Assembly: GCA_035551615.1 (NCBI GenBank) | Contig: DASZNC010000059.1 | Coordinates: 13,099 to 77,098 of the forward strand | Origin: Acidimicrobiales bacterium | GTDB taxonomy: Bacteria > Actinomycetota > Acidimicrobiia > Acidimicrobiales > Palsa-688 | Direction: 5' to 3' | DNA: 64,000 nucleotides | Shown here: piece by piece, positions 1 to 21,528 of the stretch | Layout of the letters: every line of letters begins with the position of its first letter | Position numbering within the stretch: position 1 is the stretch's first letter | Notes under the pieces: generated by a model | Seen by the model: the letters and a program-made list of their open reading frames with translations, nothing else | The model's database searches: none | What the model was told of the DNA's origin: nothing | Program-made: the position numbers and the translations under genes

Positions 1-619
1 GGGCAGGGAGGTGCTGCGGTACATCGAAGGCGACACGGTCGGTTGGGCCCTCCCCTGGCCGGACTGGTTGCGCACCGATCAACTGCTCGACGATGTCGGG
101 CGGGCGCTGGCCCGCTACCACAACGCAGCAGCCGGCTTCGCCGCCACCGGTGCCCGGTGGCAGAGCGGGCCACCGGCGACGATGAGCGGCACCCCGCTGA
201 TCGCCCACAACGACGTGGCCCCGTACAACATCGTGGCCGCCGGCGGACGGCTGGCCGGCCTCATCGACTGGGATCTGGCCGGACCGGGAACAGCCCGGGC
301 CGACCTGGCGTTCGCCGCCTGGCAGTGGGTGCCGCTGCACGGCCCGTTCGTGACGTCGCTCATGGGGTGGGACGGGTCGGACAGGCGGGAGCGGCTGCAT
401 CTGCTGCTCGAGACCTACGGGGCCGAAGCGGACGTCGACTGGGGCACGGCCGACCATTTCATCGACGCGGTCGTCGAACGGGTCGGCTACAACCGGTCGG
501 TCATGCTCGAGCGGGCGGCCGCCGGGGACCCGGCCTATCAGGCGCTGGTGGACCAGGGTCACATCGGCGGCATGGACGAGGCGCTCGGCTTCCTCGCCGG
601 CGAGGGCCGCTCGCTCTAA
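1..619 (+). CDS. aminoglycoside/antibiotic phosphotransferase (APH-like kinase) family protein, C-terminal part (5' end outside window)
   Basis: ORF 11..619 is open to the window edge. It has an HNDVAPYNI catalytic-loop-like motif and an IDWDLAG metal-binding-like motif typical of APH/choline-kinase fold. Confidence 0.55.
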   Translation, partial: GREVLRYIEGDTVGWALPWPDWLRTDQLLDDVGRALARYHNAAAGFAATGARWQSGPPATMSGTPLIAHNDVAPYNIVAAGGRLAGLIDWDLAGPGTARADLAFAAWQWVPLHGPFVTSLMGWDGSDRRERLHLLLETYGAEADVDWGTADHFIDAVVERVGYNRSVMLERAAAGDPAYQALVDQGHIGGMDEALGFLAGEGRSL

Positions 620-625
620 CCCTCG

Positions 626-691
626 TTCTGTGGTCGATTTTGCGGACTACACACGGAAAATCGACCACAGAACAACGGATCGACCACAGAA
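626..691. repeat. palindromic element copy A: TTCTGTGGTCGATTTT-15nt-AAAATCGACCACAGAA plus an adjacent third half-copy ATCGACCACAGAA; putative bidirectional terminator/REP-like element between convergent genes
   Basis: Perfect 16-nt inverted arms read directly in the sequence. The same core recurs at 49067..49117. It lies between a + gene ending at 619 and a - gene ending at 739. Confidence 0.5.
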
Positions 692-738
692 CGGTCCGGC
701 CCGCCTGCCCGCCTCGGGCCGCCGGCCGGCCGGGGGGC

Positions 739-942
739 TCAGGGCCGCGACACCGCCCGCCACAGCGACACCGGCAGCACCAGGGCGAAGAACACGGGCA
801 CCACCCACCACGCCGAGGTCCCGCTGCGGTGCACCAGCCAGGTGAGCGTCATGGCCAGCACCACGGCCACGGCGACGCGCCAGTCGTCACCGATGACGAA
901 GTCGTACCAGAAGGCCAGGAACCGGCGGACGGCATTGATCAT
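739..942 (-). CDS. small hydrophobic membrane protein (67 aa)
   Basis: Its ATG at 940-942 overlaps the stop of the upstream ORF (ATGA coupling). There are two predicted TM helices (WRVAVAVVLAMTLTWLV, WWVVPVFFALVLPVSLW). Confidence 0.4.
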   Translation of the reverse strand: MINAVRRFLAFWYDFVIGDDWRVAVAVVLAMTLTWLVHRSGTSAWWVVPVFFALVLPVSLWRAVSRP

Positions 943-1745
943 GTCGGCACCTCGACCGGGGCCACGCCCGTCCGGTCGTCCGCGTTGCGGCGCGTCCGCA
1001 GCACGGCGACGCACAGCAGGGCGTAGGCGGCCACGCCCGGCACGACCACCAACAGGGCGACGTCGTTGCCGGGCCACGTGGCGCCGGCCCCCTCGGCCCC
1101 CCAGAACATGCCGAACGATGTCAACATCACGCCCACCACGAACTTCATCGTGTTCTCCGGGACCCGGGCCAGCGGCGCCCGCACGGCAAACCCGGCGGCG
1201 GTCACCACCAGGACGGCCGACACGGCGGCCACTGCGGCCAGAGGGATGTCCTTCTGGTTGCTGCCGAAGGTGAGCGTGATGAAGACCACCTCGAGGCCCT
1301 CCAGCACCACCCCCTTGAACGACAGGGTGAACGCATACCAGTCGTCGACCACGCCCCGCTGCTGCCGGGCGGCCGTCTCCGCCGCCGCCACCTGCTTCAG
1401 GTAGATGGCCGCCTCGTCGTGCAGGGCCTTGTGGCCGCTGGCCCGCAGGATGGCCTTGCGCAGCCACTGGACCCCGAACACCAGCAACAGGCCACCCACG
1501 ATCAGCCGCAACCAGTGCAGGGGGATGGCCGAGACGCCCGGACCCAGGGCAGCCACGATCACGGCCAGCACCACCAACCCGGCGCCCACGCCGGCCAGGG
1601 CCGACCGCCACGATCTGGTGGTCCCGGCGGCCAGCACGATGGTCGTGGCCTCCACCGCCTCGACGGCGCAGGCCAGGAACACAGCGGCGAACAGTGCGCC
1701 CGCTCCTCCAGTCACGCCGGCCAGCCTAGTGACGGCCCCCGGCAT
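939..1745 (-). CDS. polytopic integral membrane protein of unknown function (internally duplicated halves)
   Basis: 268-aa ORF with about 8 hydrophobic helices. The two halves show similar patterns (LAAGTTRSW..VLAVIVAALG and LAAVAAVSAVLVVTAAGFAV). It is translationally coupled to 739..942. Confidence 0.55.
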   Translation of the reverse strand: MPGAVTRLAGVTGGAGALFAAVFLACAVEAVEATTIVLAAGTTRSWRSALAGVGAGLVVLAVIVAALGPGVSAIPLHWLRLIVGGLLLVFGVQWLRKAILRASGHKALHDEAAIYLKQVAAAETAARQQRGVVDDWYAFTLSFKGVVLEGLEVVFITLTFGSNQKDIPLAAVAAVSAVLVVTAAGFAVRAPLARVPENTMKFVVGVMLTSFGMFWGAEGAGATWPGNDVALLVVVPGVAAYALLCVAVLRTRRNADDRTGVAPVEVPT

Positions 1746-1778
1746 TCCTGAATCGGCCGCTGAGCCGGCGGCCCGGCC

Positions 1779-2546
1779 TCAGCGGCCGAGGATGTCGACG
1801 ACCGCATCAGCCGCCGCCGACGGTCGTCCCAACTCGGCCATCCGGCCCCCTCCCGCTCCGGCCAGCGCCCGGCAGGCATCCAGGGATTCGGCCTCCGGCG
1901 CCAACGCCAGGACGTGCAGAGGTACACCCATGGCCGCGGCGGCCGCGGCGATGGGCAAAGGGTCCCCGCCTTCATTGGCCATCCCGTCGCTCAGGAGTAC
2001 GACGTCGCGGCGGGCGACCGACGCTTCGGCCATCTGGGCCAGGGCGGCCCGCAGTCCGCCCTCCAGGTCGGTGGTGTCACCACCACGGAGGGCGAGGACC
2101 CGATCGACGGCGGTCGACACCGGCCCGACGTCGCGGATGTGACGCAGGACCACCGCCTTGGACCAGAACGCCACCACGGCCAGCTGGTCGCCCGGTCCGG
2201 TGCGGGCGGCCAACGCGGCGGCGGTGATCACGGCCGTGGCGAGGGGCGGGCCGGTGACCGATCCCGATGCGTCGACCACGAGCACCACGGCCCGGCCGGG
2301 CCGGCGCCAGCCCCTCCACCGCAGGTCCTCGGCCCGCAGTTCGGGGTGCTCGCCCAGGCGTTCAACGGTTGCGTCGATGTCGAGGTCCACGCCCCCGTCG
2401 CGGACCGGCCCCAAGCGGGCCGATCCACCGGGGCGGGACGGGCCGGCCCGCCGGGCGGCCGGGATCACGAGGGCGGCGGCCAGATCCCGGGCCTGGGCCC
2501 GCAACCGGGGATCGGTGGCCCGGGTCAGGTCGGCCAGGAGGGCCAC
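1779..2546 (-). CDS. VWA (von Willebrand factor A) domain protein, partner of MoxR ATPase
   Basis: MIDAS motif DASGS in VVLVVDASGSVTG plus downstream T and D residues. It sits downstream of the MoxR gene. The true start may be an alternative codon further upstream, up to about 2710. Confidence 0.7.
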   Translation of the reverse strand: MALLADLTRATDPRLRAQARDLAAALVIPAARRAGPSRPGGSARLGPVRDGGVDLDIDATVERLGEHPELRAEDLRWRGWRRPGRAVVLVVDASGSVTGPPLATAVITAAALAARTGPGDQLAVVAFWSKAVVLRHIRDVGPVSTAVDRVLALRGGDTTDLEGGLRAALAQMAEASVARRDVVLLSDGMANEGGDPLPIAAAAAAMGVPLHVLALAPEAESLDACRALAGAGGGRMAELGRPSAAADAVVDILGR

Positions 2547-2713
2547 GCCCTCGTCGAGGTCGTCGTCGAGGGCGCCGGCCAGGGCGGCGGCATCCAGGGC
2601 ACCGACCTCGGGCGAGACGTCCTCGAGTTGGGGGTGGGATCGCCGGATCTCGTCGCGCGAAAGGGTGCGCCGATTCTGCTGGCGGAGGAGTTCCTCGACC
2701 TCGCCGGGGTCGG

Positions 2714-3622
2714 TTACGGGCGATCCGGGCCGGTGCTGGTCCGGGCCGTCTCCGCCGGCGGGCGGGGGGCCGGACCGCTCACTTTTCCCGGCGGGTCCGG
2801 AGCCGCCGCTGCCCAGATCTCCTCGATCACCGCCTCTGCGCTACGGGTGACGCCCTCACGGACGGTGACCCGCCCCGACAGGGCGGTCAGAGCCGCATCG
2901 ATCCCGACGAGATCACGCTCGGCCCGCAGGGCGGCCAGCTCCGAGGCGACAGCCACCACGTCGATGGCCCCCCGCACCGACGAGCCGACCCGCAGGTCGG
3001 GATGGGTCCGGGTGAGCCGCACCGCCCGCACCGCCCGGGCCACCAGACCGGGCGGGCCCGGGGCGACGCGCGAGACGATGGCCGTCTCCTCCGCCTCCTC
3101 CTGGTAGCCGACCGCCACCCGGCAGGTGCGGTCGTAGAGGGCGGGTGTGATCCGGCCCGTCCCGATGGCGTCGAAGGGGTTCATGGCGGCGACCAGCCGG
3201 AAGGTGGGGGCGGCCACTACCTCGCCATAGCGGGGAACCTGCATGCGGCGCTCGGAGAGCACCCCGAGGAGCACGTTGAGCGTCTCTTCCGGGACCCGGT
3301 TCAGTTCCTCGACGTACAGGAGCGAGCCGGTCGTCATGGCCTGCATCAGAGGGCCGGGCATGAAGGTGTCGTTGCGGTAACCGTCGCTCAGCACCCGGGA
3401 CGGATCGTGGTGCCCGATGAGGCGGGCCGGCGACAGCTCGGCGTTGCCCTCGACGAGGAACAGGTCGACCCCGGCGCCGGTGGCCAGCGCCCGCAGGAGG
3501 GTCGTCTTCCCCGTTCCGGGCGGCCCTTCGAGCAGGACACTCCGCCCGGCGGCCAGCGCCGCGGCGACCACTTCGATGTCGCGCTGGCGCCCGACCAGGA
3601 CGTCCCGGGCGGCGGCCACCAT
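2714..3622 (-). CDS. MoxR-like AAA+ ATPase
   Basis: Walker A LLEGPPGTGKT, Walker B LLYVEELNR, VPRYGEVVAAPTFRLVAAMNP and the MoxR C-terminal region. ATG at 3620-3622 (the ORF track extends to a TTG at 3646). Confidence 0.85.
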   Translation of the reverse strand: MVAAARDVLVGRQRDIEVVAAALAAGRSVLLEGPPGTGKTTLLRALATGAGVDLFLVEGNAELSPARLIGHHDPSRVLSDGYRNDTFMPGPLMQAMTTGSLLYVEELNRVPEETLNVLLGVLSERRMQVPRYGEVVAAPTFRLVAAMNPFDAIGTGRITPALYDRTCRVAVGYQEEAEETAIVSRVAPGPPGLVARAVRAVRLTRTHPDLRVGSSVRGAIDVVAVASELAALRAERDLVGIDAALTALSGRVTVREGVTRSAEAVIEEIWAAAAPDPPGKVSGPAPRPPAETARTSTGPDRP

Positions 3623-3642
3623 GGCCGCCGCCGGCAGGACGC

Positions 3643-4764
3643 TCAATCGAAGAGGACGACGCCGCGGATGTTCTTTCCGGCGTGCATGTCCTCGTACCCC
3701 TGCGCAACCTGATCGAGGCGGTAGGTGTTGGTCACCAACTCGTCCAGCTTCAGCTTGCCGTCCCGGTACATCTGCGCCTGGCGCAGAATGTCGGAGCTCG
3801 GGTTGGATGCGCCGAACAGCGAGCCCTGGATCCGCTTCTGGAACAGTGTCAGCTCGCCCAGCGAGATGGGCAGGCCCACCTCCATCAGGTTGCCCAGGCC
3901 CGTGACCACCACCGTGCCCGCCTTACGGGTGGCGGCGAAAGCCTGGGCCACGTGATCTCCTTTGACCACACCTATCGTCACGATGACGGCGTCCGCCCCC
4001 TGACCGTTGGTGAAGCTCTTGGCCAGCTCGTCGGCCTCGGCGATGTCGGCGAAGGCGTGGGTGGCGCCCAGTTGCAGCGCCTTCTCCCGCTTCAGCTCGA
4101 CCGGATCGACGGCGATGACGTTGGTGGCGCCGGCCGCCGCCGCCCCCTGCACGGCATTGATGCCGATGCCACCTATGCCCATCACGATGACGGTGTCGCC
4201 AGGGCGCACGTCGGCCGAGTTGACCGCCGATCCCCAACCGGTGCCCACGCCGCAACCGAGCAGGCACACCTTGTCGAGCGGGAGGTCCTTGTCGACCTTG
4301 ACCGCTGACGCCAGGCTCACCACGGTGTGCTCGGCGAAGGTCGAGATACCGCACATCTGGCCGACCGGCTCACCGTCGACGGTGTGCATGCGGTAGCTGG
4401 TCGGGTCCTCCGGCCGGCCGCCGGACAGGAGACCGGCCCCCAGATCGCAGAGGTTCTGCATGCCGGCCGCACACCACCGGCAGCGACCGCACCCGGGCAG
4501 GAAGGAGAACACGACGTGGTCGCCGACCTCGAAGCCGCCGGTGTTCGGGCCGATCTTCTCGACCACGCCGGCGCCCTCGTGACCACCGCAGAACGGATAA
4601 ACCGCGACCGGGATGTCCCCCGTGGCGATGTGGTCGTCGGAGTGGCACAGCCCGGAGGCGGCCATCCGGATGAGCAACTCGCCCTGGCGGGGCTCGTCCA
4701 GTTCGATGTCTATGGTCTCGTAGCTGCCGGGCGCCGAGGCGATGACAGATCCGCGGGTACGCAT
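3643..4764 (-). CDS. zinc-dependent alcohol dehydrogenase, class III/NDMA-dependent ADH-like (MDR superfamily)
   Basis: GLCHSDDH catalytic zinc motif, CGRCRWC structural zinc Cys cluster and a GIGGIGINAVQGA Rossmann motif. 373 aa, typical length. Confidence 0.85.
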   Translation of the reverse strand: MRTRGSVIASAPGSYETIDIELDEPRQGELLIRMAASGLCHSDDHIATGDIPVAVYPFCGGHEGAGVVEKIGPNTGGFEVGDHVVFSFLPGCGRCRWCAAGMQNLCDLGAGLLSGGRPEDPTSYRMHTVDGEPVGQMCGISTFAEHTVVSLASAVKVDKDLPLDKVCLLGCGVGTGWGSAVNSADVRPGDTVIVMGIGGIGINAVQGAAAAGATNVIAVDPVELKREKALQLGATHAFADIAEADELAKSFTNGQGADAVIVTIGVVKGDHVAQAFAATRKAGTVVVTGLGNLMEVGLPISLGELTLFQKRIQGSLFGASNPSSDILRQAQMYRDGKLKLDELVTNTYRLDQVAQGYEDMHAGKNIRGVVLFD

Positions 4765-4861
4765 GGTGACTCCCCCTTGTCGGTTGGCGGTCTCCGGTCG
4801 ACTCTAGGCCCGTGTTATATCGCCTGCGCCAGACGGTCCGCCTCCAATACGGTGATCGGCC

Positions 4862-6484
4862 GTGTTGTCGGCCCGAGGAGTGACCATTCAAAGGGGCACC
4901 CAGGTGGTGCTCGATTCGGTCTCCCTGTCGGTCGACCGGGGCTCGCGCCTGGGCGTGGTCGGTCCCAACGGCGTGGGCAAGAGCACCCTGCTGCGGGTTC
5001 TCGCCGGCCAGCAGGTCCCCGACCAGGGTGTCATCGAGAAGGCGCCGGCGTCGCTGCGGATCGCCTTCCTGGCCCAGGAAACCGATGCCCTTCCGGGCGA
5101 GTACCTGCTCAATTACCTGGGCCGCCGGACCGGCGTGGCCGAGGCGTCGGCCGAACTGGACCGGCAGACCGAGCTGCTGGCCACCGACCCTTCTGCGGTT
5201 GACGCCTACTCGGACGCGCTCGATACGTTCATCGCCGCCGGTGGCGGGGATTTCGAGACCCGGGTGGGGACGGTGGCGGCCGAGGTGGGACTGCCCCCGG
5301 ACCGGCTCCAGGTCCCGGTGATCGATTACTCCGGAGGCCAGTCGGCCCGGGCCCGGCTGGCCGCCGTCCTGCTCACCCGCGCCGATGTGCTGCTGCTCGA
5401 CGAACCGACCAACGACCTCGACTTCGCCGGGCTGGACCTGCTCGAGTCGGCGGTCGGCCGCTTCGACGGGGCGGTGGTGATGGTGTCCCACGACCGGGCC
5501 TTCCTCGACCGGGCGGCCACGCGCGTGCTCGAGATCGAGGAGCACACCCACCGGTCCACCGAATACGCCGGGGCGTGGTCGGAATACGTCGAGCGGCGGG
5601 CCCTGGCCCGCTCGCAGGCCTCCGCTGCGTTCGCCGACTGGAAGGCGGAACGGGACCGGCTGCGGGCCCGTGTGCGCACCCAGCGCTCGTGGTCGGAGGA
5701 GGGCGTGCGCAAGGCGACCCGCAAGCCGAAGGACAACGACAAGGCGCAACGTGACTTCCGGATCAACCGCACCGAGAAGCAGGCCTCCAAGGTGCGCACC
5801 TCGGAACGGGTGCTCGACAAACTGGGCACGGTGGACAAGCCCTGGGAGGGCTGGGACCTGCACCTGGACCTGGCCCACGACGGGCGCAGCGGCGACCGCG
5901 TGGCCCGCCTGTCCGACGCCGTCGTCCGCCGGGGCGCCTGGCAACTGGGACCGGTGGACCTGGAGATCGGGTGGGCCGAACGCATCGTGGTCACCGGGCC
6001 GAACGGCGGTGGCAAGTCGACCCTGCTCGCCGCCCTGCTCGGCACCATCGCGCCGTCCTCCGGGGACCGGTGGGTGGGGCCGTCGGTCCGATTCGGCGAA
6101 CTGGATCAGCGGCGCAGCCGGGTCGACCCGGGAGTGTCGCTCGCTGATGCGTTCACAACCTCCACCGGGGTCACGACCGAAGAAGCCCGGTCGACGCTGG
6201 CCAAGTTCGGGCTCGGCGCCTCCCACGTCGGCCGCTCGGTCGGCCGCCTGTCGCCGGGCGAGCGGACCCGGGCCCAGCTGGCCGAACTGATGCTGCTCGG
6301 TACCAACTGCCTGGTGCTCGACGAGCCGACCAACCATCTCGACCTGCCGGCCATCGAACAGCTCGAGGAGGCCATGGAGTCCTTCGCCGGCACGCTGCTG
6401 GTCATCACCCACGACCGCTGGCTGCTCGACGGGCTGCGGGTGGACCGGGCCATCGAGGTGGCCGACGGGACGGTGCGCGGCTAG
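4862..6484 (+). CDS. ABC-F family ATPase (tandem ABC domains, no TMD; translation-factor/resistance-type)
   Basis: Two Walker A motifs ([18 protein letters not shown]), two LSGGQ-like signatures ([16 protein letters not shown]) and a charged inter-domain linker. Confidence 0.9.
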
Positions 6485-6544
6485 CCGGTCGGCGGCCGAC
6501 ATACGGCCCGGCGGCGGGCCAGCAGGCGGCGGCCCCGTGCGGGA

Positions 6545-7786
6545 CTAACCGGCCGGTGGGCGGACCGGCACTGTGAAATCGTCGAACACGGCCGGTGTGA
6601 TGGCCGTCGGAGCAACGCCGGGCGGGACCGACACCTGCACTGCCTGGACGTGTATGTCCTGGGCCGAGACCCGGATACGGGTGTAGCCGTAGTGGCCGCT
6701 GTCCACTGCTTGGATCGTCACGCCGGCCAGGCCGGGGAACGTGGCCGGCAGTTTCAGCGCGACGACGTCGGCGGCGATGGCGTGCAGGTTGTGGTAGCCG
6801 CCGTTGCCGGCGACGAGGTAGGTGAGTGAACCGGAGCCATCAACCAGGGACGCGTCGCGGGAGTGGCGCTGGTAGTCGTGCACATGCCCGGCGCAGATCA
6901 GGTCGGGGAGCCGCTTGGTCGCCTTCATGGCGTCGTCCAGCACCCCGATCATGTAGGCGCTGGAGCTGTGATAGGCGTCGGCCGAGATGGGCGGGTGGTG
7001 CATGGTCACGATGAGCGCCTTGCCGGCCGGTGCGGCGGTCAGTTCGGAATGCAGCCAGGCCACCTGGGTGGCGTCCATCTCGCCGTACTCGGGGACGTTG
7101 GTGTACAACCCGATGATCGTCGCCAATGGCGTATCCAGCGTCCAGTAGACGTTGGGCTGGGTCATGGTCGTCCGACCGGTGTCGCCGGCCGCCGGGTTGG
7201 TCGCCGGGGCGGTGGTGCAGAAGTTCTGGATGAAGCCGTCGAGCGTTGTCTGGCCGGCATTCAGTGGGTCGCCGTCGTGGTTGCCGGGCACTGCGAATAT
7301 CGGCGCCGTGTAGTGGACATACGGGTCGTAGAACTGGGGGTAGTACTGCGACTCCTGGCCGTTGAAGTAGACGCAGTCGCCCAGCACGTACAGGAAGCTG
7401 GGCACCCATCCGGCCGCCGGGGCGGTGATGTCGCGTTCCATGGCCTCGGCCACGTTCTGCTGCGGGAGCGGGTTGGCGATCCCCCCGGTGTCGCCGACCA
7501 TGTGGAACGTCATGGCACCGGCCTTCGTGATGGCGGCGACGGCGGCGTCGCCCAGGACCGACGCCAGATCCAGGTGAAAGGGCGACGGACCGACGGGAGG
7601 CGGCAGGGGCTGGAAGGCCTGACCGCTGGCCGGCGTGGACTGGGGCCCGTCGGCCGCCAGCAGCCGCCGGCGCCCGAACCGGTGACCGGTCGGTGACTGC
7701 GGATGGGGGGTATCGGAGCCGAGGGGCGTGTCGGGGCCGGGAGGGGTTGCGGGGCCGGGAGGGGTGTCGGGGCCAGGAGGGGTCAC
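6545..7786 (-). CDS. calcineurin-like metallophosphoesterase
   Basis: GDTGG, GNHD, HHPP and GHVHDYQR metallophos motifs. An N-terminal Pro-rich TPPGPD repeat and an RRRLLAA twin-Arg-like motif make the true start uncertain. Confidence 0.75.
   Translation of the reverse strand: MTPPGPDTPPGPATPPGPDTPLGSDTPHPQSPTGHRFGRRRLLAADGPQSTPASGQAFQPLPPPVGPSPFHLDLASVLGDAAVAAITKAGAMTFHMVGDTGGIANPLPQQNVAEAMERDITAPAAGWVPSFLYVLGDCVYFNGQESQYYPQFYDPYVHYTAPIFAVPGNHDGDPLNAGQTTLDGFIQNFCTTAPATNPAAGDTGRTTMTQPNVYWTLDTPLATIIGLYTNVPEYGEMDATQVAWLHSELTAAPAGKALIVTMHHPPISADAYHSSSAYMIGVLDDAMKATKRLPDLICAGHVHDYQRHSRDASLVDGSGSLTYLVAGNGGYHNLHAIAADVVALKLPATFPGLAGVTIQAVDSGHYGYTRIRVSAQDIHVQAVQVSVPPGVAPTAITPAVFDDFTVPVRPPAG
7711..7782. 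repeat. 18-nt GC-rich tandem repeat (GTCGGGGCCGGGAGGGGT-like, ~4 copies)
   Basis: Read directly in the sequence. It corresponds to the TPPGPD repeats at the annotated 5' end of the phosphoesterase ORF. Confidence 0.5.
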
Positions 7787-7811
7787 CGCCCGACCCTATG
7801 CCTCGGCCCGG

Positions 7812-8165
7812 CTACTGCTGGACGAGAGTGAGCGGGTTGCCTTCGGGGTCCTCGACGAACGCCATGGTCGGTCCGCCGGGCAGGTCGAACGGGTCGGATG
7901 TGACCTTCCCGCCCAGGTCGGCGGCCAGGGTCAGGCTGGCCCGGATGTCACGGACCTGCACGTACAGGACCACCCCGGAGGTCGATCCCTCGCGGATGTG
8001 ACCGGCCGGTCCCGGCTCGGGCCCCCCGAGTCCCGGGGTGATGAACCTGATGTCGCCGTCGGTGACGGTCCAGTTGAACAGCCGGCCATAGAAGGCAGCC
8101 TGGCGCTCGGCGTCGCGGGCGACGATCTCCCAGTGGACCACCGGACGGGCCCAGTCGTCGGCCAT
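7812..8165 (-). CDS. VOC (glyoxalase/bleomycin-resistance/dioxygenase) family protein
   Basis: 117-aa product from ATG 8163-8165. HWEIVARD ... GGPEPGPAGHI ... AFVEDPEGNPL single-domain glyoxalase pattern. Confidence 0.7.
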   Translation of the reverse strand: MADDWARPVVHWEIVARDAERQAAFYGRLFNWTVTDGDIRFITPGLGGPEPGPAGHIREGSTSGVVLYVQVRDIRASLTLAADLGGKVTSDPFDLPGGPTMAFVEDPEGNPLTLVQQ

Positions 8166-8166
8166 T

Positions 8167-8445
8167 TCAGTCCAGCTCCTCGAAGCGGGCGCTGCGTACG
8201 GTGGCCGCATCGACGAACGCCATGAACTCCTGAGCCACGGGATCGGTCTTCCACTTCTCGTCACAGGCGTCGGCTGCGTCCGCCGACTCCCACAGGTCGA
8301 GCACCAGCCACGATCCGCGCTCCGAACGGCCGGTGGTGCGCCGCAGCAGCCCCGGTTGCTGGTAGGCGAAGTCGGTCTGGACCCGCTTGTCGGCGGCGAT
8401 GAACCGGTCGACGTCGGCTCCTTCGATCAGGTCGAAGACGAGCAT
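8167..8445 (-). CDS. small alpha/beta protein, possibly ABM/Dabb-like (92 aa)
   Basis: ORF tail starting MLVFDLIEGADVDRFIAADKRV. It is tightly coupled: its stop at 8167 is 1 nt from the downstream gene start at 8165. Confidence 0.45.
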   Translation of the reverse strand: MLVFDLIEGADVDRFIAADKRVQTDFAYQQPGLLRRTTGRSERGSWLVLDLWESADAADACDEKWKTDPVAQEFMAFVDAATVRSARFEELD

Positions 8446-14962: not shown

Positions 14963-15304
14963 GTGAGTACAGAAGGCAGGGGCGGAGGGTCCGACGGCGA
15001 GGAGGCCGAGCAGCCGCCGGCGTGGCCACTGCCTGACCCGCCCCTCTACTCACCGACCAACCCGGGCCAGGCCTACTCGTCGCCCAACCCGGCGCAGAGC
15101 TACTCGTCCGCCGACCCTGCCCACCGGTACTCGTCGGCCCACCCTGGTCAGAACTACTCGTCGCACCCGGGCCCGACCTATTCGTCCCACCCGGGCGGCC
15201 AGGACTACTCGTCGCATCCGGGTCAGGCGTACTCCTCCAATCCCAACCCGTCGAGCACCTACAGCCCCTCCGGTGGGGCCAGCCCCTCTTCGCCCTCGGA
15301 ATGA
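14963..15304 (+). CDS. Pro/Tyr/Ser-rich nonapeptide-repeat protein (x-H-P-G-Q-x-Y-S-S, ~9 copies), intrinsically disordered
   Basis: GTG start 9 nt after an AAGGAG RBS. Periodic YSS repeats with GC3-biased codons. Its stop overlaps the patatin start (ATGA at 15301-15304). Confidence 0.5.
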   Translation: MSTEGRGGGSDGEEAEQPPAWPLPDPPLYSPTNPGQAYSSPNPAQSYSSADPAHRYSSAHPGQNYSSHPGPTYSSHPGGQDYSSHPGQAYSSNPNPSSTYSPSGGASPSSPSE

Positions 15305-16161
15305 CCACGATGACCAGGGCACTGGTGCTGGCCGGCGGCGGGGTGGCCGGCATCGCCTGGGAGACCGGCGTGCTGAGGGGCATCGAAGAAGCCGATCCGC
15401 AGCTGGCCGCCTCGCTGCTCGCCGCCGACGTGATCATCGGCACCTCGGCCGGCGCGGCGGTGGCCGCCCAGGTCACGAGTGGCCGGTCGCTCGCCGATCT
15501 CTACGACGATCAGGTCAACGGGCCGTCGCCCGAGATCGATGTGCAGATGGAGATGGACGAACTGATCGGCCGGTTCATCCAGGCCGTCCAGGGCGCTGAT
15601 TCACGGACCGATGTGCTGAGGAGAATCGGCCGGATGGCCGCCGCCACCGAGACGGTGACCGAGGCCGAACGCCGGGCGGTGATCGAACGACGCCTGCCCA
15701 GTCACGATTGGCCCGACGGCGATGTGCGCATCGTCGCCGTCGAGATCGACGCCGGTGAACCGGTCGTGTTCGACCGCACGACCGGCGTGGCGCTGGTGGA
15801 CGCGGTCGCCGCCAGCTGCGCGGTGCCGGGTATCTGGCCGCCGGTGACCATCGGCGACCGGCGCTACATGGATGGTGGCGTGCGATCGACGTCGAACGTC
15901 GACCTGGCCGCTGGGTGCGACCGGATCGTCGTGTTGTCGCCGGCGGCCGCCGACCAGCCCGGGCTGGCCGGCCGGACGCTGGCCGAGGAGGTCGCGTCCT
16001 TTGACCAGATACCGGTCACCATCATCGATGCATCACCGGAGGCGGTCGCCGCCTTCGGGACCAATCCGCTGTCGGCCACGACCCGGAGGCCGGCCGCCAC
16101 CGCCGGGCGCCGTCAGGGGCTCGAGTGGGCTGGAAAGCTGGGCCCGACCTGGGCCGGTTAG
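15301..16161 (+). CDS. patatin-like phospholipase
   Basis: GGGVAG oxyanion motif, GTSAG nucleophile-Ser motif, DGG catalytic Asp motif (YMDGGV). 286 aa. Confidence 0.85.
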   Translation: MTTMTRALVLAGGGVAGIAWETGVLRGIEEADPQLAASLLAADVIIGTSAGAAVAAQVTSGRSLADLYDDQVNGPSPEIDVQMEMDELIGRFIQAVQGADSRTDVLRRIGRMAAATETVTEAERRAVIERRLPSHDWPDGDVRIVAVEIDAGEPVVFDRTTGVALVDAVAASCAVPGIWPPVTIGDRRYMDGGVRSTSNVDLAAGCDRIVVLSPAAADQPGLAGRTLAEEVASFDQIPVTIIDASPEAVAAFGTNPLSATTRRPAATAGRRQGLEWAGKLGPTWAG

Positions 16162-17197: not shown

Positions 17198-18493
17198 TCA
17201 GGCGCCGATTCGGCTGGTGGCCGAACCCTCGTAGGGGGCGTTCCCGTAGTTGAACGCCCCGCCGTCGGCGGCGACCAACCAGTAGCCGCCATAGCTGCTG
17301 TCGGCGGCCAACCCGACCACCGGCGCGGCCAGCGTCGACCCACCCGCCGAGCCCAGGAACGGGGCGTGGAAACCGAAGACCCCGCCGTCGGCCGCCACCA
17401 GCCAGTAGCCACCGGTCGCCCGGTCGGCGGTGATCCCGACGACGGCGGCGCTGAGCGGAGCCGACCCGGCCGACCCATAGAAGGGGGCACCGCCGTAGGC
17501 GAACACCCCGCCGTCGGCGGCGGCCAGCCAGTAACCGTGCCCGCCCGGCGCGGCGGCGATGCCGACCACCGGTGCGGCGAGCGGATGGCCGGCAGCCGAA
17601 CCCTCGAAGCGGGCGTCCCCATAGGTGAACACCCCGCCGTCGGCGGCGACCAGGTAGTAGCCGCGCCCATCGGACGAGGCGGCAATACCGACCAGCGGTT
17701 GGGCCAGCCTGCGGCCGCCGGTCGACCCGTAGAACCGGGCCCCGTCGTAGCTGTACACCCCGCCGTCGGCGGTCACCATCCAGAACCCGCCGTTCGGATC
17801 GGAGGCCACCCCGACGAACGGGACATCGGATCCGTCACCCGCCTCGGTGACGGTGTTCGGCTCGGCGTAGACGACCCCGCTGGCCGTCGCTATCCGGAAG
17901 CCGCCCTGGGCGCCGGCCGGCGAACCCGACGACGGCCGGGCCGCCGGGCGGGCGGAAGAATCGCCGGTGACGCCGACGGCCGGGTCGGGCCGCAGCGCTT
18001 TGGCCGGCTGCACGACCGAATAGGTGCCCGGGCCCTGAGAGCAGGGCCGGCTGATACCGAGGGGGTACACCGCGCCTTGGCCGTCGCCGCTGATCCGGAG
18101 GAAAACCGACTGGGCGATGTCGGTGCAGTAGGCGGACCAGGCGACGGCGATGACCGGCGGGGCCATCTCATGGCCGGCGAACAGAAGGTCGACCGTCGCG
18201 TCCCCGCCGTCGGTTGCGATCCCGGCCGGGACGGCGCCGGCCGCATCGGTGATCTCGTCCGACAGCACCGGGGCGGTCGTGCAGCTCTGGCCCGGCCGGG
18301 CCGGTATCAACTGGATGGTCAGGACCTGGGTCCCGGCCGCGCCCTCGGTCGACTCCTGGCCGAAGGTGAAGTCGCACGGAGCCGGATGCGCCGGCAGCCG
18401 GGCTGCGGCCGGCGCGCCGCCGGCGATCGACCCGACGGCGATCAACAGTCCGGCCGCCGCGACCTTGGCTGCTGTCAGATGGAGTGACCTCAT
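17198..18493 (-). CDS. secreted protein: signal peptide + Cys-containing N-domain + 5-6 tandem ~38-aa propeller-like repeats (GYWLVAADGGVFxYGxAxFxGS)
   Basis: N-terminal signal peptide (AAGLLIAVGSIAGGAPAAA). The repeats are read directly; it is a paralog of 20146..21528. Confidence 0.75.
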   Translation of the reverse strand: MRSLHLTAAKVAAAGLLIAVGSIAGGAPAAARLPAHPAPCDFTFGQESTEGAAGTQVLTIQLIPARPGQSCTTAPVLSDEITDAAGAVPAGIATDGGDATVDLLFAGHEMAPPVIAVAWSAYCTDIAQSVFLRISGDGQGAVYPLGISRPCSQGPGTYSVVQPAKALRPDPAVGVTGDSSARPAARPSSGSPAGAQGGFRIATASGVVYAEPNTVTEAGDGSDVPFVGVASDPNGGFWMVTADGGVYSYDGARFYGSTGGRRLAQPLVGIAASSDGRGYYLVAADGGVFTYGDARFEGSAAGHPLAAPVVGIAAAPGGHGYWLAAADGGVFAYGGAPFYGSAGSAPLSAAVVGITADRATGGYWLVAADGGVFGFHAPFLGSAGGSTLAAPVVGLAADSSYGGYWLVAADGGAFNYGNAPYEGSATSRIGA

Positions 18494-18577
18494 TGCGACC
18501 TCCCCCGGAGCACCACTGCTCTTCCCGGATGATAGAAGGTGGCGGCCCCCGATCGACGGGGAAAAGCCGGGCCCTCC

Positions 18578-19090
18578 TCAGGCGGCGGCGATCGGGCGGC
18601 TCAGTTCGATGACGCCCCATGCCACGCCGGTCGTGCGGAAACCGTGGTGGTGGAGCAGGCGGCTGGCCACGACGTTCTCGTAGTCGGTGGTGGCGACCAG
18701 GTCGTGATAGCCCAGGCCGACCGCCTGCTCGATCAGGCGGTCGATCAGCACCGATCCGACGCCCCGGCCCTGCCAGCGGTCGTCGACGACCAGGGCCAGT
18801 TCGGCGCCGCCCACCGTCGGTTCGATCCGCCCGATGGCGACGATCGTCCCCTCCTCCGGCGACCACACCGCCAGCGCCTCCCGACCGTCGTGGCCGACGT
18901 CGAGGAAGTGGGCGATCTCGGCTTCGGTCAGCGGTCCTCTCCGGCCTCCGAACCGCAGTTCCCGGGTCCGGGGCGACAGCCGCCCAACGGCGCATTCATA
19001 GGCGCGGCGGTCGGCCGGCCGCAGGGGCCTTATCTCCAGATCGGCTCCGTCGATCGAGCGGACCGGATCCACCAGAGTCAGTTCTGTCAT
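18578..19090 (-). CDS. GNAT family N-acetyltransferase
   Basis: 171 aa from ATG 19088-19090. The acetyl-CoA motif region WQGRGVGSVLIDRLIEQAV matches the R/Q-x-x-G-x-G/A pattern. Confidence 0.75.
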   Translation of the reverse strand: MTELTLVDPVRSIDGADLEIRPLRPADRRAYECAVGRLSPRTRELRFGGRRGPLTEAEIAHFLDVGHDGREALAVWSPEEGTIVAIGRIEPTVGGAELALVVDDRWQGRGVGSVLIDRLIEQAVGLGYHDLVATTDYENVVASRLLHHHGFRTTGVAWGVIELSRPIAAA

Positions 19091-19117
19091 AGAACTAACT
19101 GTAAGACAGTCAGTTCT
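19091..19117. promoter_or_regulatory. operator-like inverted repeat AGAACTAACTGT-aag-ACAGTCAGTTCT between divergent GNAT and HxlR genes
   Basis: 12-bp arms with one mismatch. Additional CAGTTCTGT half-site copies on both flanks (19079-19087, 19111-19119). Confidence 0.45.
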
Positions 19118-19135
19118 GTGATGCGACCCTCTACA

Positions 19136-19636
19136 ATGGCGGCCATGCAGCGGAGCACCTTCGCGGACATGGCCTGTTCCGTGGCCCAGTGCCTGGAGAT
19201 CGTCGGCGAGTGGTGGACGCTGCTGATCGTCCGTGACGCGTTCATGGGTGTCCGCCGCTTCGATGACTTCCAAACCCGCCTCGGCGTCTCCCGCAACGTG
19301 CTCAACCAGCGACTGGTGCGACTGGTCGAACAGGGCGTATTCGAGAAGGTGCCGTACTCCGACCACCCTCCCCGATTCGAATACCGGCTGACCGACAAGG
19401 GCAAGGACCTGTGGGGCGTCATCACCACCATGCGCCAGTGGGGTGACCGGTGGGCCGCACCCGCCGGCCCCCCGATCGAACTCGTCCACAAGGATTGCGG
19501 ACGGGCCGGCGGCATCGATCTGACCTGTTCGGAATGCGGCGAAACCGTCGGCTACCGCGACATGAGGGCGACACCGGGCCCTGGCTACCGGGACGGACTG
19601 ATCCCCGAGCGGCGGGCCGCGGACCAGCGGGCCTGA
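19136..19636 (+). CDS. HxlR-family (MarR-like winged helix) transcriptional regulator with C-terminal Cys-rich extension
   Basis: CSVAQCLEIVGEWWTLLIVRDAF ... FDDFQTRLGVSRNVLNQRLVRLVEQGV HxlR signature. The tail carries C-x9-C-x2-C. Alternative starts at 19118 or 19121. Confidence 0.8.
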   Translation: MAAMQRSTFADMACSVAQCLEIVGEWWTLLIVRDAFMGVRRFDDFQTRLGVSRNVLNQRLVRLVEQGVFEKVPYSDHPPRFEYRLTDKGKDLWGVITTMRQWGDRWAAPAGPPIELVHKDCGRAGGIDLTCSECGETVGYRDMRATPGPGYRDGLIPERRAADQRA

Positions 19637-19864
19637 CCAGCCCTCCGCGAGGCGGCCGGCCCCGGTTGTCGTCGACGCAGCGCCGCGCCCGGCCTGCGGT
19701 TCGCGTCCTGGCCGATGCGGTCAAAGGAGTGGGCCTGCCCGCCCTCGCCCGGACGCCACTTGCGAGCCTCCGACCAGCTCGGCGGCCGACCTTGCCGAAC
19801 TCTCTGACCTGAGCCAGAAGTCAGCCTGAAAACTATCGAAACAACTTCATTATTATCCAAGTGT

Positions 19865-19897
19865 ATGCAAAGTTGCTGATATAGTCCGCAACTTTGC
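19865..19897. promoter_or_regulatory. perfect 11-bp inverted repeat TGCAAAGTTGC-N11-GCAACTTTGCA inside a ~40% GC island (19790-19905)
   Basis: Read directly in the sequence. The region is far more AT-rich than the flanks and lies about 250 nt upstream of the secreted repeat-protein gene. Confidence 0.4.
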
Positions 19898-20145
19898 ACA
19901 CATCCGCATGGAATCCCCTCCCGGGAGGGCCAGACCAGCCGGCCCCACCTGGGCCGAGATGCCAGCCCCGCCGGGCCGAGCCGGGCCGGGAGCCGTCGGG
20001 TGGGCATCCATCTGCTTCTTGATCCGGGCACCCTGGCCGATCGACGAAGGGCGCGGGCCGTGCGCTCAAGTCGCCACGATCCGGACGCCGATCCTTTCTG
20101 TAGCGGAGGCCGGCGGAGATCTCCGGCCTACGGAAAGTTCGACTG

Positions 20146-21528
20146 ATGACCCTACGACCCCGCACCCCCACCGCCGCCGCCGCCGCCGTCGCCGTACTGG
20201 CCGCCGCCGGTGCCGCCGGCCTGGGCACCCACCCGGCCGTCGCCCAGGAGGTCCACAGCACGACCACCCCGGCGCACGTGGCGGCCAGCACCTCGCAGGC
20301 CTACAGCCTGCTCACGCGCGACGGCCGCCTGGTGGGCTTCGGTGGCGCCTTCTCCGGGACGGTAGCTGCGCCCAGTTCCCCGGTGGTGGGCGTGGCGTCC
20401 ACCCCCGATGGCCACGGCGCTTACGCAGCCGAGGCCGACGGGGCGGTGATCGCCCTGGGCGACGCCGTCTACCGCGGCTCCATGGCCGGCACCCGCCTGG
20501 CCCAACCGATCGTCGGCATCGCCATCGACCCGGCCACGGGTGGGTACTGGCTGGTGGCGTCCGACGGCGGCATCTTCTCCTTCGGCGACGCCCCCTTCTA
20601 CGGCTCCACCGGCGGCATCCACCTGTCCGAACCGGTGGTCGGCATCTCGGCCATGCCCGACGGGGGCGGCTACCGCATGGTCGCCACCGACGGCGGCGTC
20701 TTCTCCTTCGGCGACGCCCGCTTCTACGGTTCGACCGGGGGCGTGCACCTCAGCCAGCCGGTGGTCGGCATGGCCACCACGTCGTCCGGCAACGGCTACT
20801 GGCTGGTCGCATCCGATGGTGGCCTGTTCAACTACGGCGACGCCCATTTCTACGGTTCCACCGGCAACGTCCACCTGGTGAAGCCGGTCATCGCCATCAG
20901 CCCGACGACCAACGGGCACGGTTACTGGATGGTTGCGTCCGACGGTGGCATCTTCACCTTCGGCAACGCCGCCTACTACGGCTCCGGTTCCGGCCTCGGC
21001 ACGGAGGTGGTCGGGATGGCGACCGGCGCCACCGGCAACTACGACGATCCCCTCCGGGCCGTCGCCGGCCTCACGCCGGAGCGGGTCGACGAGGGCGTGG
21101 ACTATGCCGGCTCCGGGCCCATATATGCGCTGGGCGACGGGGTGGTCACGTCGACGGCCGGCTCGTGGCCGGACGGCAACTACATCTCCTACCGGCTGAC
21201 CGACGGCCCGGCCGCCGGGAAGATGGTCTACGTCGCCGAGAATGTCACCCCGACGGTCACCGTCGGCCAGGTGGTCAACGTCAACACGGTGGTCGGGATC
21301 CTCCATGACTCGTACCCGGACATGGAGATCGGTTGGTCCGCCGACTCCTACGGCGACACCATGGCGGCTGTCTCCGGCCAGTGGACGTCGGCCAACGACA
21401 GCGATTCCGACCCGACGGCCTACGGTGCCAACTTCGATCAGCTGTTGATGTCGCTCGGCGCGCCGTCGGGGATCATGGAGCACCCGACGCCGCACGGCAC
21501 GCTGGCCGCCGGCTGGCCCACCTGGTAG
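20146..21528 (+). CDS. secreted protein: signal peptide + ~6 tandem 38-40-aa propeller-like repeats + unknown ~170-aa C-terminal domain
   Basis: MTLRPRTPTAAAAAVAVLAAAGAAGLGTHPAVAQE signal peptide. Repeats GYWLVASDGGIFSFGDAPFYGSTGGIHLSEPVVGIS x6. RBS-like GGAAAG before the ATG. Confidence 0.8.
   Translation: MTLRPRTPTAAAAAVAVLAAAGAAGLGTHPAVAQEVHSTTTPAHVAASTSQAYSLLTRDGRLVGFGGAFSGTVAAPSSPVVGVASTPDGHGAYAAEADGAVIALGDAVYRGSMAGTRLAQPIVGIAIDPATGGYWLVASDGGIFSFGDAPFYGSTGGIHLSEPVVGISAMPDGGGYRMVATDGGVFSFGDARFYGSTGGVHLSQPVVGMATTSSGNGYWLVASDGGLFNYGDAHFYGSTGNVHLVKPVIAISPTTNGHGYWMVASDGGIFTFGNAAYYGSGSGLGTEVVGMATGATGNYDDPLRAVAGLTPERVDEGVDYAGSGPIYALGDGVVTSTAGSWPDGNYISYRLTDGPAAGKMVYVAENVTPTVTVGQVVNVNTVVGILHDSYPDMEIGWSADSYGDTMAAVSGQWTSANDSDSDPTAYGANFDQLLMSLGAPSGIMEHPTPHGTLAAGWPTW

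Follow-up and report, generated by a model that had tools for sequence, protein, structure and literature searches.

In this study, we analysed a 64,000-nucleotide stretch of DNA from an Acidimicrobiales bacterium (GenBank assembly GCA_035551615.1, contig DASZNC010000059.1, positions 13,099 to 77,098; hereafter the window, G+C ~71%), which encodes two predicted secreted proteins, here named A and B, that share an array of six 42-amino-acid (aa) repeats. In structure models the repeats of both proteins fold as a six-bladed beta-propeller, which appears to be a self-contained module. We consider it probable that this propeller is a cell-wall-binding module of a new kind, because it is fused to many wall enzymes and is placed in the wall-binding position of phage lysins. 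In protein B it is joined to a C-terminal domain that resembles the M23/LytM peptidases and is probably a wall hydrolase domain. The window matches a 77-kb contig of JGI metagenome 3300036800. The open reading frames (ORFs) of A, B and the two genes between them agree with the public gene calls on the source contig, and NCBI protein VG435_06765, from an Acidimicrobiales metagenome-assembled genome (MAG; P0121 in our set), shows 100% identity to the product of gene A. The features of the two genes are listed below, with model confidence given as pLDDT (predicted local distance difference test) for AlphaFold2 (AF2) models.

17198..18493, minus strand: gene A, 431 aa; signal peptide, orphan Cys-containing domain modelled as a beta-sandwich, and six-repeat propeller (ORF, public gene call, 13 orthologues aligned)
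18401..18493, minus strand: predicted Sec signal peptide of A, aa 1-31, cleavage between AAA and RL (sequence features; low-confidence helix modelled at aa 4-22)
17999..18397, minus strand: all-beta N-terminal domain of A, aa 33-165, ~135 aa (pLDDT ~60-86; no Pfam or PDB match)
17222..17986, minus strand: propeller of A, six 42-aa repeats, aa 170-424, the first repeat degenerate and with an insertion
20146..21528, plus strand: gene B, 460 aa; signal peptide, six-repeat propeller and M23-like carboxylate-variant C-terminal domain (ORF, gene call, 46 orthologues, AF2 model with pLDDT 86.4)
20146..20244, plus strand: predicted Sec signal peptide of B, aa 1-33, cleavage between AVA and QE (sequence features; pLDDT <50 for aa 1-48)
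20293..21033, plus strand: propeller of B, six 42-aa repeats, aa 50-296, three modelled strands each; strand one is missing from the first repeat, and the sixth has an extra strand behind it (aa 288-295)
21034..21525, plus strand: C-terminal domain of B, aa 297-460 (164 aa), M23/LytM-like; DxGxD (D315, D319), AE (E365) and ExGW (E394) replace the zinc histidines

The period of the repeat is 42 aa, with six units in each protein. The D of the DGG motif is found at aa 243, 285, 327, 369 and 410 in A and at aa 98, 140, 182, 224 and 266 in B, in addition to one degenerate copy in each protein (near aa 204 and aa 59, respectively). Alignment of A with B is confined to the repeats (51-54% identity, E-value 8e-55), with further alignments shifted by whole repeats. 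Single repeats share a mean identity of 45% in A and 49% in B, and of 45% when those of A are compared with those of B. DSSP assigned three strands to each repeat in the AF2 models of A and B, at pLDDT >90. Six blades were seen in these models and not the seven of RCC1/BLIP-II-like propellers, and the modelled fold is superposable on solved six-bladed members of the NHL/YWTD type. Six repeats were detectable in 137 of 239 fetched family members, and five in another 79. A preliminary description of this locus had proposed two secreted proteins with different accessory domains on a beta-propeller scaffold, and the reading frames, the signal-peptide features, the restriction of the alignment to the repeats and the predicted structure all bear this out. 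It had correctly counted six repeats in B; its repeat length (~38 aa) was too short, and its five to six copies in A become six.

No Pfam or NCBIfam model was found for the repeat in A or B (nor any Pfam model in the 46 B and 13 A orthologues), which confirms that it lies outside the known Pfam families. Weak Pfam matches to Ribosomal_L24e, DUF5818, SH3_YKFC_2nd, BPL_C and CSD_RNase_II were rejected as spurious, all of them falling on the beta-hairpin of the repeat. The label 'ribosomal protein L24E' that the JGI annotation gives to family members P0158, P0172 and P0217 is explained by the weak Ribosomal_L24e match to the GYWLVASDGG-IFSFG hairpin. PHROGs and PADLOC scans of A and B returned nothing meaningful. 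In the literature, we found no description of the repeat motif, of a propeller wall-binding domain in Acidimicrobiia or of an endolysin propeller domain.

The N-termini of both proteins fit export by a Sec signal peptide: one or two basic residues are followed by a 15-aa hydrophobic core (mean Kyte-Doolittle hydropathy ~2.1) and an AxA site. Lipoprotein and Tat export were both rejected, as neither a lipobox nor a twin arginine is present.

A and B are ordinary members, independent of each other, of a secreted protein family in Acidimicrobiales that is very large and has no name. With each of the two full-length proteins as query, at least 8000 protein clusters were retrieved at E≤1e-5. A highly specific peptide pattern occurs at >596 loci in species-representative genomes, nearly all of them Acidimicrobiales or Acidimicrobiaceae MAGs, together with Acidithrix ferrooxidans, Acidiferrimicrobium sp. 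IK and some Dormibacterota. This distribution, one of the checks proposed in the preliminary description, centres the family on Acidimicrobiales. Several genomes have more than one pattern locus, and at 12 of 86 loci two or three separate repeat genes lie within ~7 kb of each other; the window itself contains two repeat genes only, A and B (tblastn). The propeller of B shares 51-54% identity with that of A and 53-64% with propellers of unrelated proteins from other genomes, so that it is no closer to A than to these. A and B are therefore neighbouring family members and not the special duplicated pair that had been proposed.

The wall-binding reading rests first on the domains to which the propeller is fused. 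We found a Pfam partner domain in 81 of the 120 best relatives of A, and 43 of these 81 carry a peptidoglycan enzyme or peptidoglycan-binding domain. Among these 120 relatives the partners include Amidase_3 (13 proteins), YkuD (8), Beta-lactamase2 (6) and CHAP (4); further partners are NlpC/P60, M23, Amidase_2, SpoIID, GH25, S11/S13 DD-peptidases, transglycosylase-like domains, polysaccharide deacetylase and PG_binding_1. The six-repeat block precedes Amidase_3, YkuD, beta-lactamase-like, S11 and M23 domains in the protein chain, and it follows CHAP, GH25, NlpC/P60, SpoIID and GH43 domains. Fusion at either end is the behaviour of a mobile targeting module. A review of wall hydrolases pairs these same catalytic domains with LysM, SH3, SLH, CWB1/2, PGB and SPOR modules and never mentions a propeller (PMC6403190). 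No Pfam match to the catalogued wall-binding domains (LysM, SH3b, SLH, CWB1/2, PGB, SPOR) was found in A, B or the B orthologues.

In these respects the propeller resembles the wall-binding modules of Gram-positive bacteria, such as CWB2 of the Clostridioides difficile Cwp proteins, SLH, LysM, SH3b and the choline-binding repeats. As with these modules, a single domain recurs in a large number of the proteins that a genome exports; its partners, at one end or the other, include amidases, L,D-transpeptidases, NlpC/P60, CHAP, M23, GH25, beta-lactamase-like and CAP domains, and phage endolysins reuse it as their C-terminal domain. The difference is that there is no kinship in sequence or fold, the module here being a beta-propeller, with binding predicted. 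If this reading holds, the propeller would bind peptidoglycan or a wall-associated polymer non-covalently, probably in a multivalent way through its six equivalent blades, and would hold the fused cargo domain at the cell wall. The cargo of A would be an orphan, disulfide-stabilised beta-sandwich. With its divergent M23/LytM-like cargo, B would probably be a hydrolase that remodels the wall; a non-catalytic wall-binding or regulatory protein of the LytM type is the less probable option.

The second line of evidence comes from viral contigs in IMG/VR, where one to three copies of the repeat form the C-terminal end of Amidase_2 proteins 220-320 aa long (contigs L092, L094, L098 and L104; a related protein in L095). 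The genes for these proteins directly follow tape-measure and minor-tail genes, and in L098 the gene directly precedes an integrase. This gene order is that of an endolysin locus in a temperate siphovirus, and the repeat takes the predicted wall-binding position. Endolysin-like proteins with only one, two or three C-terminal repeats were found in L088, L092, L094, L095, L098, L104 and L105. The lectin RSL is a six-bladed propeller formed as a trimer of two-blade subunits. One to three blades would be too few to close a propeller, and by analogy with RSL this implies that the short versions may oligomerise into a six-bladed ring (6×1, 3×2 or 2×3). The likeness to the RSL/AAL-type fucose lectins lies in the six-bladed propeller and in this possible assembly; in contrast, the 42-aa repeat family has no sequence similarity to them. 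The metagenomes of several of these viral contigs (3300036771, 3300036846 and 3300036851) are numbered near that of the window (3300036800), which suggests the same habitat. Among 50,697 deposited phages (tblastn), there was one match to the propeller, a metagenomic phage GH25 protein with distant repeats (30% identity).

Two viral contigs also encode much longer repeat proteins (L087, positions 5248-8313; L089, positions 5197-8328). These are ~1030-aa proteins with 12 repeats, which would form two tandem six-bladed propellers, between an unannotated N-terminal region of ~250 aa and a C-terminal region of ~270 aa. They may be tail or receptor-binding proteins.

The M23-like nature of the C-terminal domain of B and the wall enzymes fused to the family were not seen in the preliminary description. 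The Pfam M23 model (PF01551) gives B 14.9 bits (E-value 0.031), below the gathering score of 28.7 bits. Sub-threshold M23 matches recur in 37 of the 46 B orthologues (best E-value 2.9e-5), and the best viral relative reaches 27.9 bits. When the domain was aligned by hhalign with the genuine M23 domain of family member P0224, the E-value was 1e-4, and FHAGTDF paired with VDEGVDY. Profile searches of the PDB ranked an M23 peptidase first (E-value 0.11, and 0.011 when the profile was broadened); zoocin A came next at 0.1, and a lipoyl (hybrid-barrel) domain was reached at 0.68. The model of the domain is beta-rich, at pLDDT ~87-96.

This domain belongs to a family of its own. An exhaustive hidden Markov model (HMM) search of 1.84 billion representatives retrieved 1717 representative clusters, 1267 of them at ≤1e-10 and 413 at ≤1e-30. 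Only 4 of the 148 top relatives also contain the propeller; therefore, the C-terminal domain is an independent mobile domain. Its partners among 104 representatives were Phage_lysozyme2 (7 proteins), SLT/SLT_2/SLT_3 (8), Glucosaminidase (2), LysM (2), PG_binding_1 and LGFP, and in viral contig L099 an endolysin-like protein consists of this domain and PG_binding_1. Relatives are also found inside proteins of 740-1490 aa on viral contigs, and no match was found among the deposited phages (tblastn).

The canonical M23 motifs (HxxxD, HxH and the catalytic His) were not found in the C-terminal domain of B. By position, D315 corresponds to the ligand His of M23, D319 to the ligand Asp and E365 to the catalytic His, and P-D-M-E394-I-G-W takes the place of the HxH region. 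Over 146 representatives of the family, DxGxD is present in 146 and ExGW in 143, whereas HxGxD is present in none and HxH in one; the residues D, G, D, E, G and W do not vary, and the AE motif is almost invariant. Because the replacing carboxylates are invariant, we argue for a working site and not a decayed LytM domain, and the domain is probably a wall hydrolase domain. It resembles M23/LytM domains (lysostaphin, zoocin A, ShyA and the degenerate EnvC and NlpD) in its consistent sub-threshold M23 matches and in its partners, namely lysozyme, SLT, LysM and PG_binding_1. It differs from them in having DxGxD for HxxxD, Glu (in AE) for the catalytic His and an invariant ExGW near the lost HxH, as well as a C-terminal helical extension of ~60 aa that ends in GWPxW.

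Two facts speak for caution about a hydrolase. The domain has no canonical M23 zinc ligand and falls short of the Pfam threshold, so it could be non-catalytic, and the register of the alignment near the lost HxH is ambiguous by two residues. In LytM factors that lack metal ligands, the role is to activate amidases. The domain could accordingly be a degenerate LytM-type domain similar to EnvC or NlpD, which binds peptidoglycan or activates an amidase instead of cutting the wall; the loss of every canonical ligand across the family and the low Pfam scores would be expected in that case. However, the substitutes are invariant in the family of B, unlike in the degenerate LytM factors, and the conservation of DxGxD and ExGW among such divergent representatives points to a functional site. 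In addition, the domain holds the position of the catalytic domain beside PG_binding_1 in the endolysin-like protein of L099, and, like true M23 domains, it is found together with lysozyme and SLT domains. We regard the non-catalytic alternative as unlikely.

The N-terminal domain of protein A is modelled, with moderate confidence, as a beta-sandwich; the preliminary description gave both accessory domains ~170 aa, which is close to the 164 aa found in B and too long for the ~135 aa found in A. The four Cys noted there (aa 39, 70, 122 and 150) are invariant in the 13 orthologues, and would fit two disulfides in an exported protein. Among 387 fetched proteins, the domain is confined to orthologues of A. 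No credible relative was found in Pfam (E≤10) or in PDB profile searches, and a resemblance to DUF4232 is unsupported by the same searches. A word-index search with the isolated domain was blank despite the presence in the database of the identical P0121 and of orthologues with 55-60% identity, and such a search is unreliable for short queries.

Several considerations weigh against the propeller being a wall-binding module. Each functional step is drawn from architecture, and the fusion census covers 240 listed relatives of a family with >8000 members. Peptidoglycan enzymes make up only about half of the partner domains; the others (TIG, GH43, S8, CAP, further propellers) are of kinds usual in surface or secreted proteins, and a general role as a lectin or in adhesion would therefore fit too. 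In such a role the propeller would be a carbohydrate-binding module for external substrates or surfaces, such as plant, fungal or prey-cell polysaccharides, and would serve nutrient acquisition or adhesion, as opposed to anchorage in the wall of the producer itself. We consider this improbable. The surface-interaction or lectin-like role first suggested for A and B is the best reading in its broad sense, and wall binding is the form of it that we prefer.

A further consideration concerns BLIP-II of Streptomyces exfoliatus, the sole solved relative that can be detected by sequence. A phmmer search with B against 177,635 PDB sequences gave BLIP-II as the only significant match (E-value 8e-6), a match that is weak and of high compositional bias. 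A profile of the B orthologues again retrieved BLIP-II (3.4e-4) and, at an E-value that is only suggestive, the RCC1-like domain of HERC2 (0.085). With hhalign, the E-value to BLIP-II was 1.6e-4, compared with 0.36-0.72 for shuffled or reversed controls. The Pfam models RCC1 (PF00415), RCC1_2 (PF13540) and WD40_RLD gave no match at E≤1 in A and B or at E≤0.1 in the 46 B and 13 A orthologues, and a viral member (L093) matched below threshold only (WD40_RLD 2.2e-4, RCC1_2 2.9e-3). On these comparisons, the propeller appears as a distant relative of the BLIP-II/RCC1 lineage. It had been stated earlier that the repeat fits no NHL, FG-GAP, PQQ, Kelch or RCC1 consensus; this stands for NHL, and was too strong for RCC1, as BLIP-II and an RCC1-like domain are the only significant PDB matches by sequence.

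BLIP-II is a secreted actinobacterial protein with repeats of ~40 aa and three strands each (PMC6121496). The propeller of A and B shares with it the order of hydrophobic strand, DG turn, hydrophobic strand and aromatic-G in ~40-aa repeats and, in the models, three antiparallel strands per blade. In contrast to the wall polymer proposed here, the ligand of BLIP-II is a protein. The propeller could accordingly be a protein-binding module that binds, inhibits or regulates penicillin-binding proteins (PBPs), beta-lactamases or wall hydrolases, and not the wall itself. Such a role would agree with BLIP-II being the only significant sequence relative with a solved structure, with the shared short three-strand repeat, and with the fusion of family members to Beta-lactamase2 and S11/S13 DD-peptidase domains. 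Also, next to the A orthologue P0127 (L005, positions 3796-5383), a stand-alone Beta-lactamase2 gene is directly preceded by a second propeller gene, whose 277-aa product has no other domain. However, BLIP-II has seven blades and the propeller here has six; the family is joined to more than 40 unrelated partner domain families, many of which lack a PBP-like fold; and the repeat takes the C-terminal wall-binding position of phage endolysins. We judge this role to be improbable, and retain wall binding as the preferred reading.

The NHL and YWTD propellers, such as the extracellular sensor of Mycobacterium tuberculosis PknD (1rwi), are similar in their six-bladed fold, as far as the models show. 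Neither NHL (PF01436) nor YWTD/Ldl_recept_b (PF00058) gave a Pfam match in A, B or their orthologues, and no such PDB chain was found at E≤10. They also differ in having four strands per blade, compared with three in the models here, and in being fused to kinases or receptors, whereas the present module is fused to wall enzymes.

Between A and B lie two further genes and two short repeated elements in non-coding DNA.

18578..19090, minus strand: GNAT acetyltransferase, 170 aa (Pfam Acetyltransf_1/3/7, gene call; unrelated neighbour)
19136..19636, plus strand: HxlR-family regulator, 166 aa (Pfam HxlR E-value 1e-22, gene call; unrelated neighbour)
19866..19898, no strand assigned: perfect inverted repeat with arms of 11 bp (TGCAAAGTTGC-N11-GCAACTTTGCA), within an AT-rich patch that precedes gene B by ~250 bp

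The GNAT gene is on the strand of A, 84 bp upstream of it, and the HxlR gene is divergent from the GNAT gene. The 45-bp spacer between them (window positions 19077-19121) contains a direct repeat (AGTCAGTTCTGT, twice) with internal ACAG/CTGT symmetry; this repeat is a likely HxlR operator, unrelated to the palindrome upstream of B. This palindrome occurs once in the window, and none of 100 shuffled sequences contained such a repeat. It lies in the AT-rich patch (19820-19900) and overlaps a -10-like hexamer, TATAGT; it may act on B as an operator or promoter, or else form a hairpin in the RNA of a long leader. Rfam gave no match for the whole window at the gathering score or for 18400-20300 at E≤1, and no cyclic di-AMP (c-di-AMP) or other riboswitch was found upstream of B. 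A promoter scan showed no sigma-70 consensus, and one weak terminator-like site only.

HxlR and GNAT are an unrelated regulator-target pair between two propeller genes. No HxlR, GNAT or partner propeller gene is present near the B orthologues P0013 and P0009 or the A orthologues P0128 and P0127. Because this synteny is absent in all four contexts, a functional linkage of HxlR and GNAT to A and B was rejected; likewise, the direct repeat in the spacer, typical of an HxlR gene with a divergent target and unlike the palindrome upstream of B, marks the pair as unrelated. It is very unlikely that the four genes form one co-regulated cassette, in which HxlR would, for example, sense a signal and control both propeller genes while GNAT modifies their products or substrate: the divergent layout, with GNAT and A on the minus strand (the 84-bp gap) and HxlR and B on the plus strand, would suit it, but the four contexts, the unlike repeats and the clustering of repeat genes by chance or tandem spread (the 12 of 86 loci) stand against it. 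The preliminary description was right that these neighbours lie between divergent propeller genes; the arrangement is not conserved in the four orthologous contexts.

In one of these contexts (L004, positions 1-7413), the B orthologue P0009 divergently adjoins the mraZ-rsmH-ftsI-murE end of the dcw cluster; this is a single case, not seen in the other contexts. Elsewhere in the window, a small called gene (14963-15304, plus strand; 113 aa) has a 4-bp overlap with the start of a patatin gene (15301..16161), and its product contains ~8 tandem Pro/Gly-x-x-Tyr-Ser-Ser units (…PGQAYSSPNPAQSYSSADPAHRYSSAHPGQNYSS…).

Considered alone, the window gives a modest result, two ordinary family members beside an unrelated regulator and acetyltransferase. 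The repeat family is undescribed; the kinds of element involved (a propeller repeat, a wall-binding module and an M23-like domain) are already known, and this is not a categorically new system. Our fullest proposal is that the 42-aa repeat is an unrecognised wall-binding domain, six-bladed and related to BLIP-II, that serves as the main non-covalent anchor of Acidimicrobiales exoproteins, that phages borrowed one to three blades of it, which oligomerise, as the wall-binding domain of their endolysins, and that the C-terminal domain of B is a new branch of the M23 fold, all-carboxylate in its motifs (DxGxD/AE/ExGW) and with a catalytic chemistry or metal of its own. As one joint claim this is tentative, and we would place it a little short of an even chance. 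The carboxylate variant of M23 (~1700 clusters, all outside Pfam) would be a candidate for a new family of peptidoglycan hydrolases whose metal or acid-base chemistry is different. Should the propeller be a wall anchor, the few known bacterial cell-wall-binding modules would be joined by a new structural class, and engineered lysins would gain a targeting domain. The endolysin tails with one to three repeats would be a natural propeller assembled from fragments. A wall anchor of this kind would also offer a way into the function of thousands of 'hypothetical proteins' of Acidimicrobiales, a lineage of soil and peat that is abundant and poorly studied.

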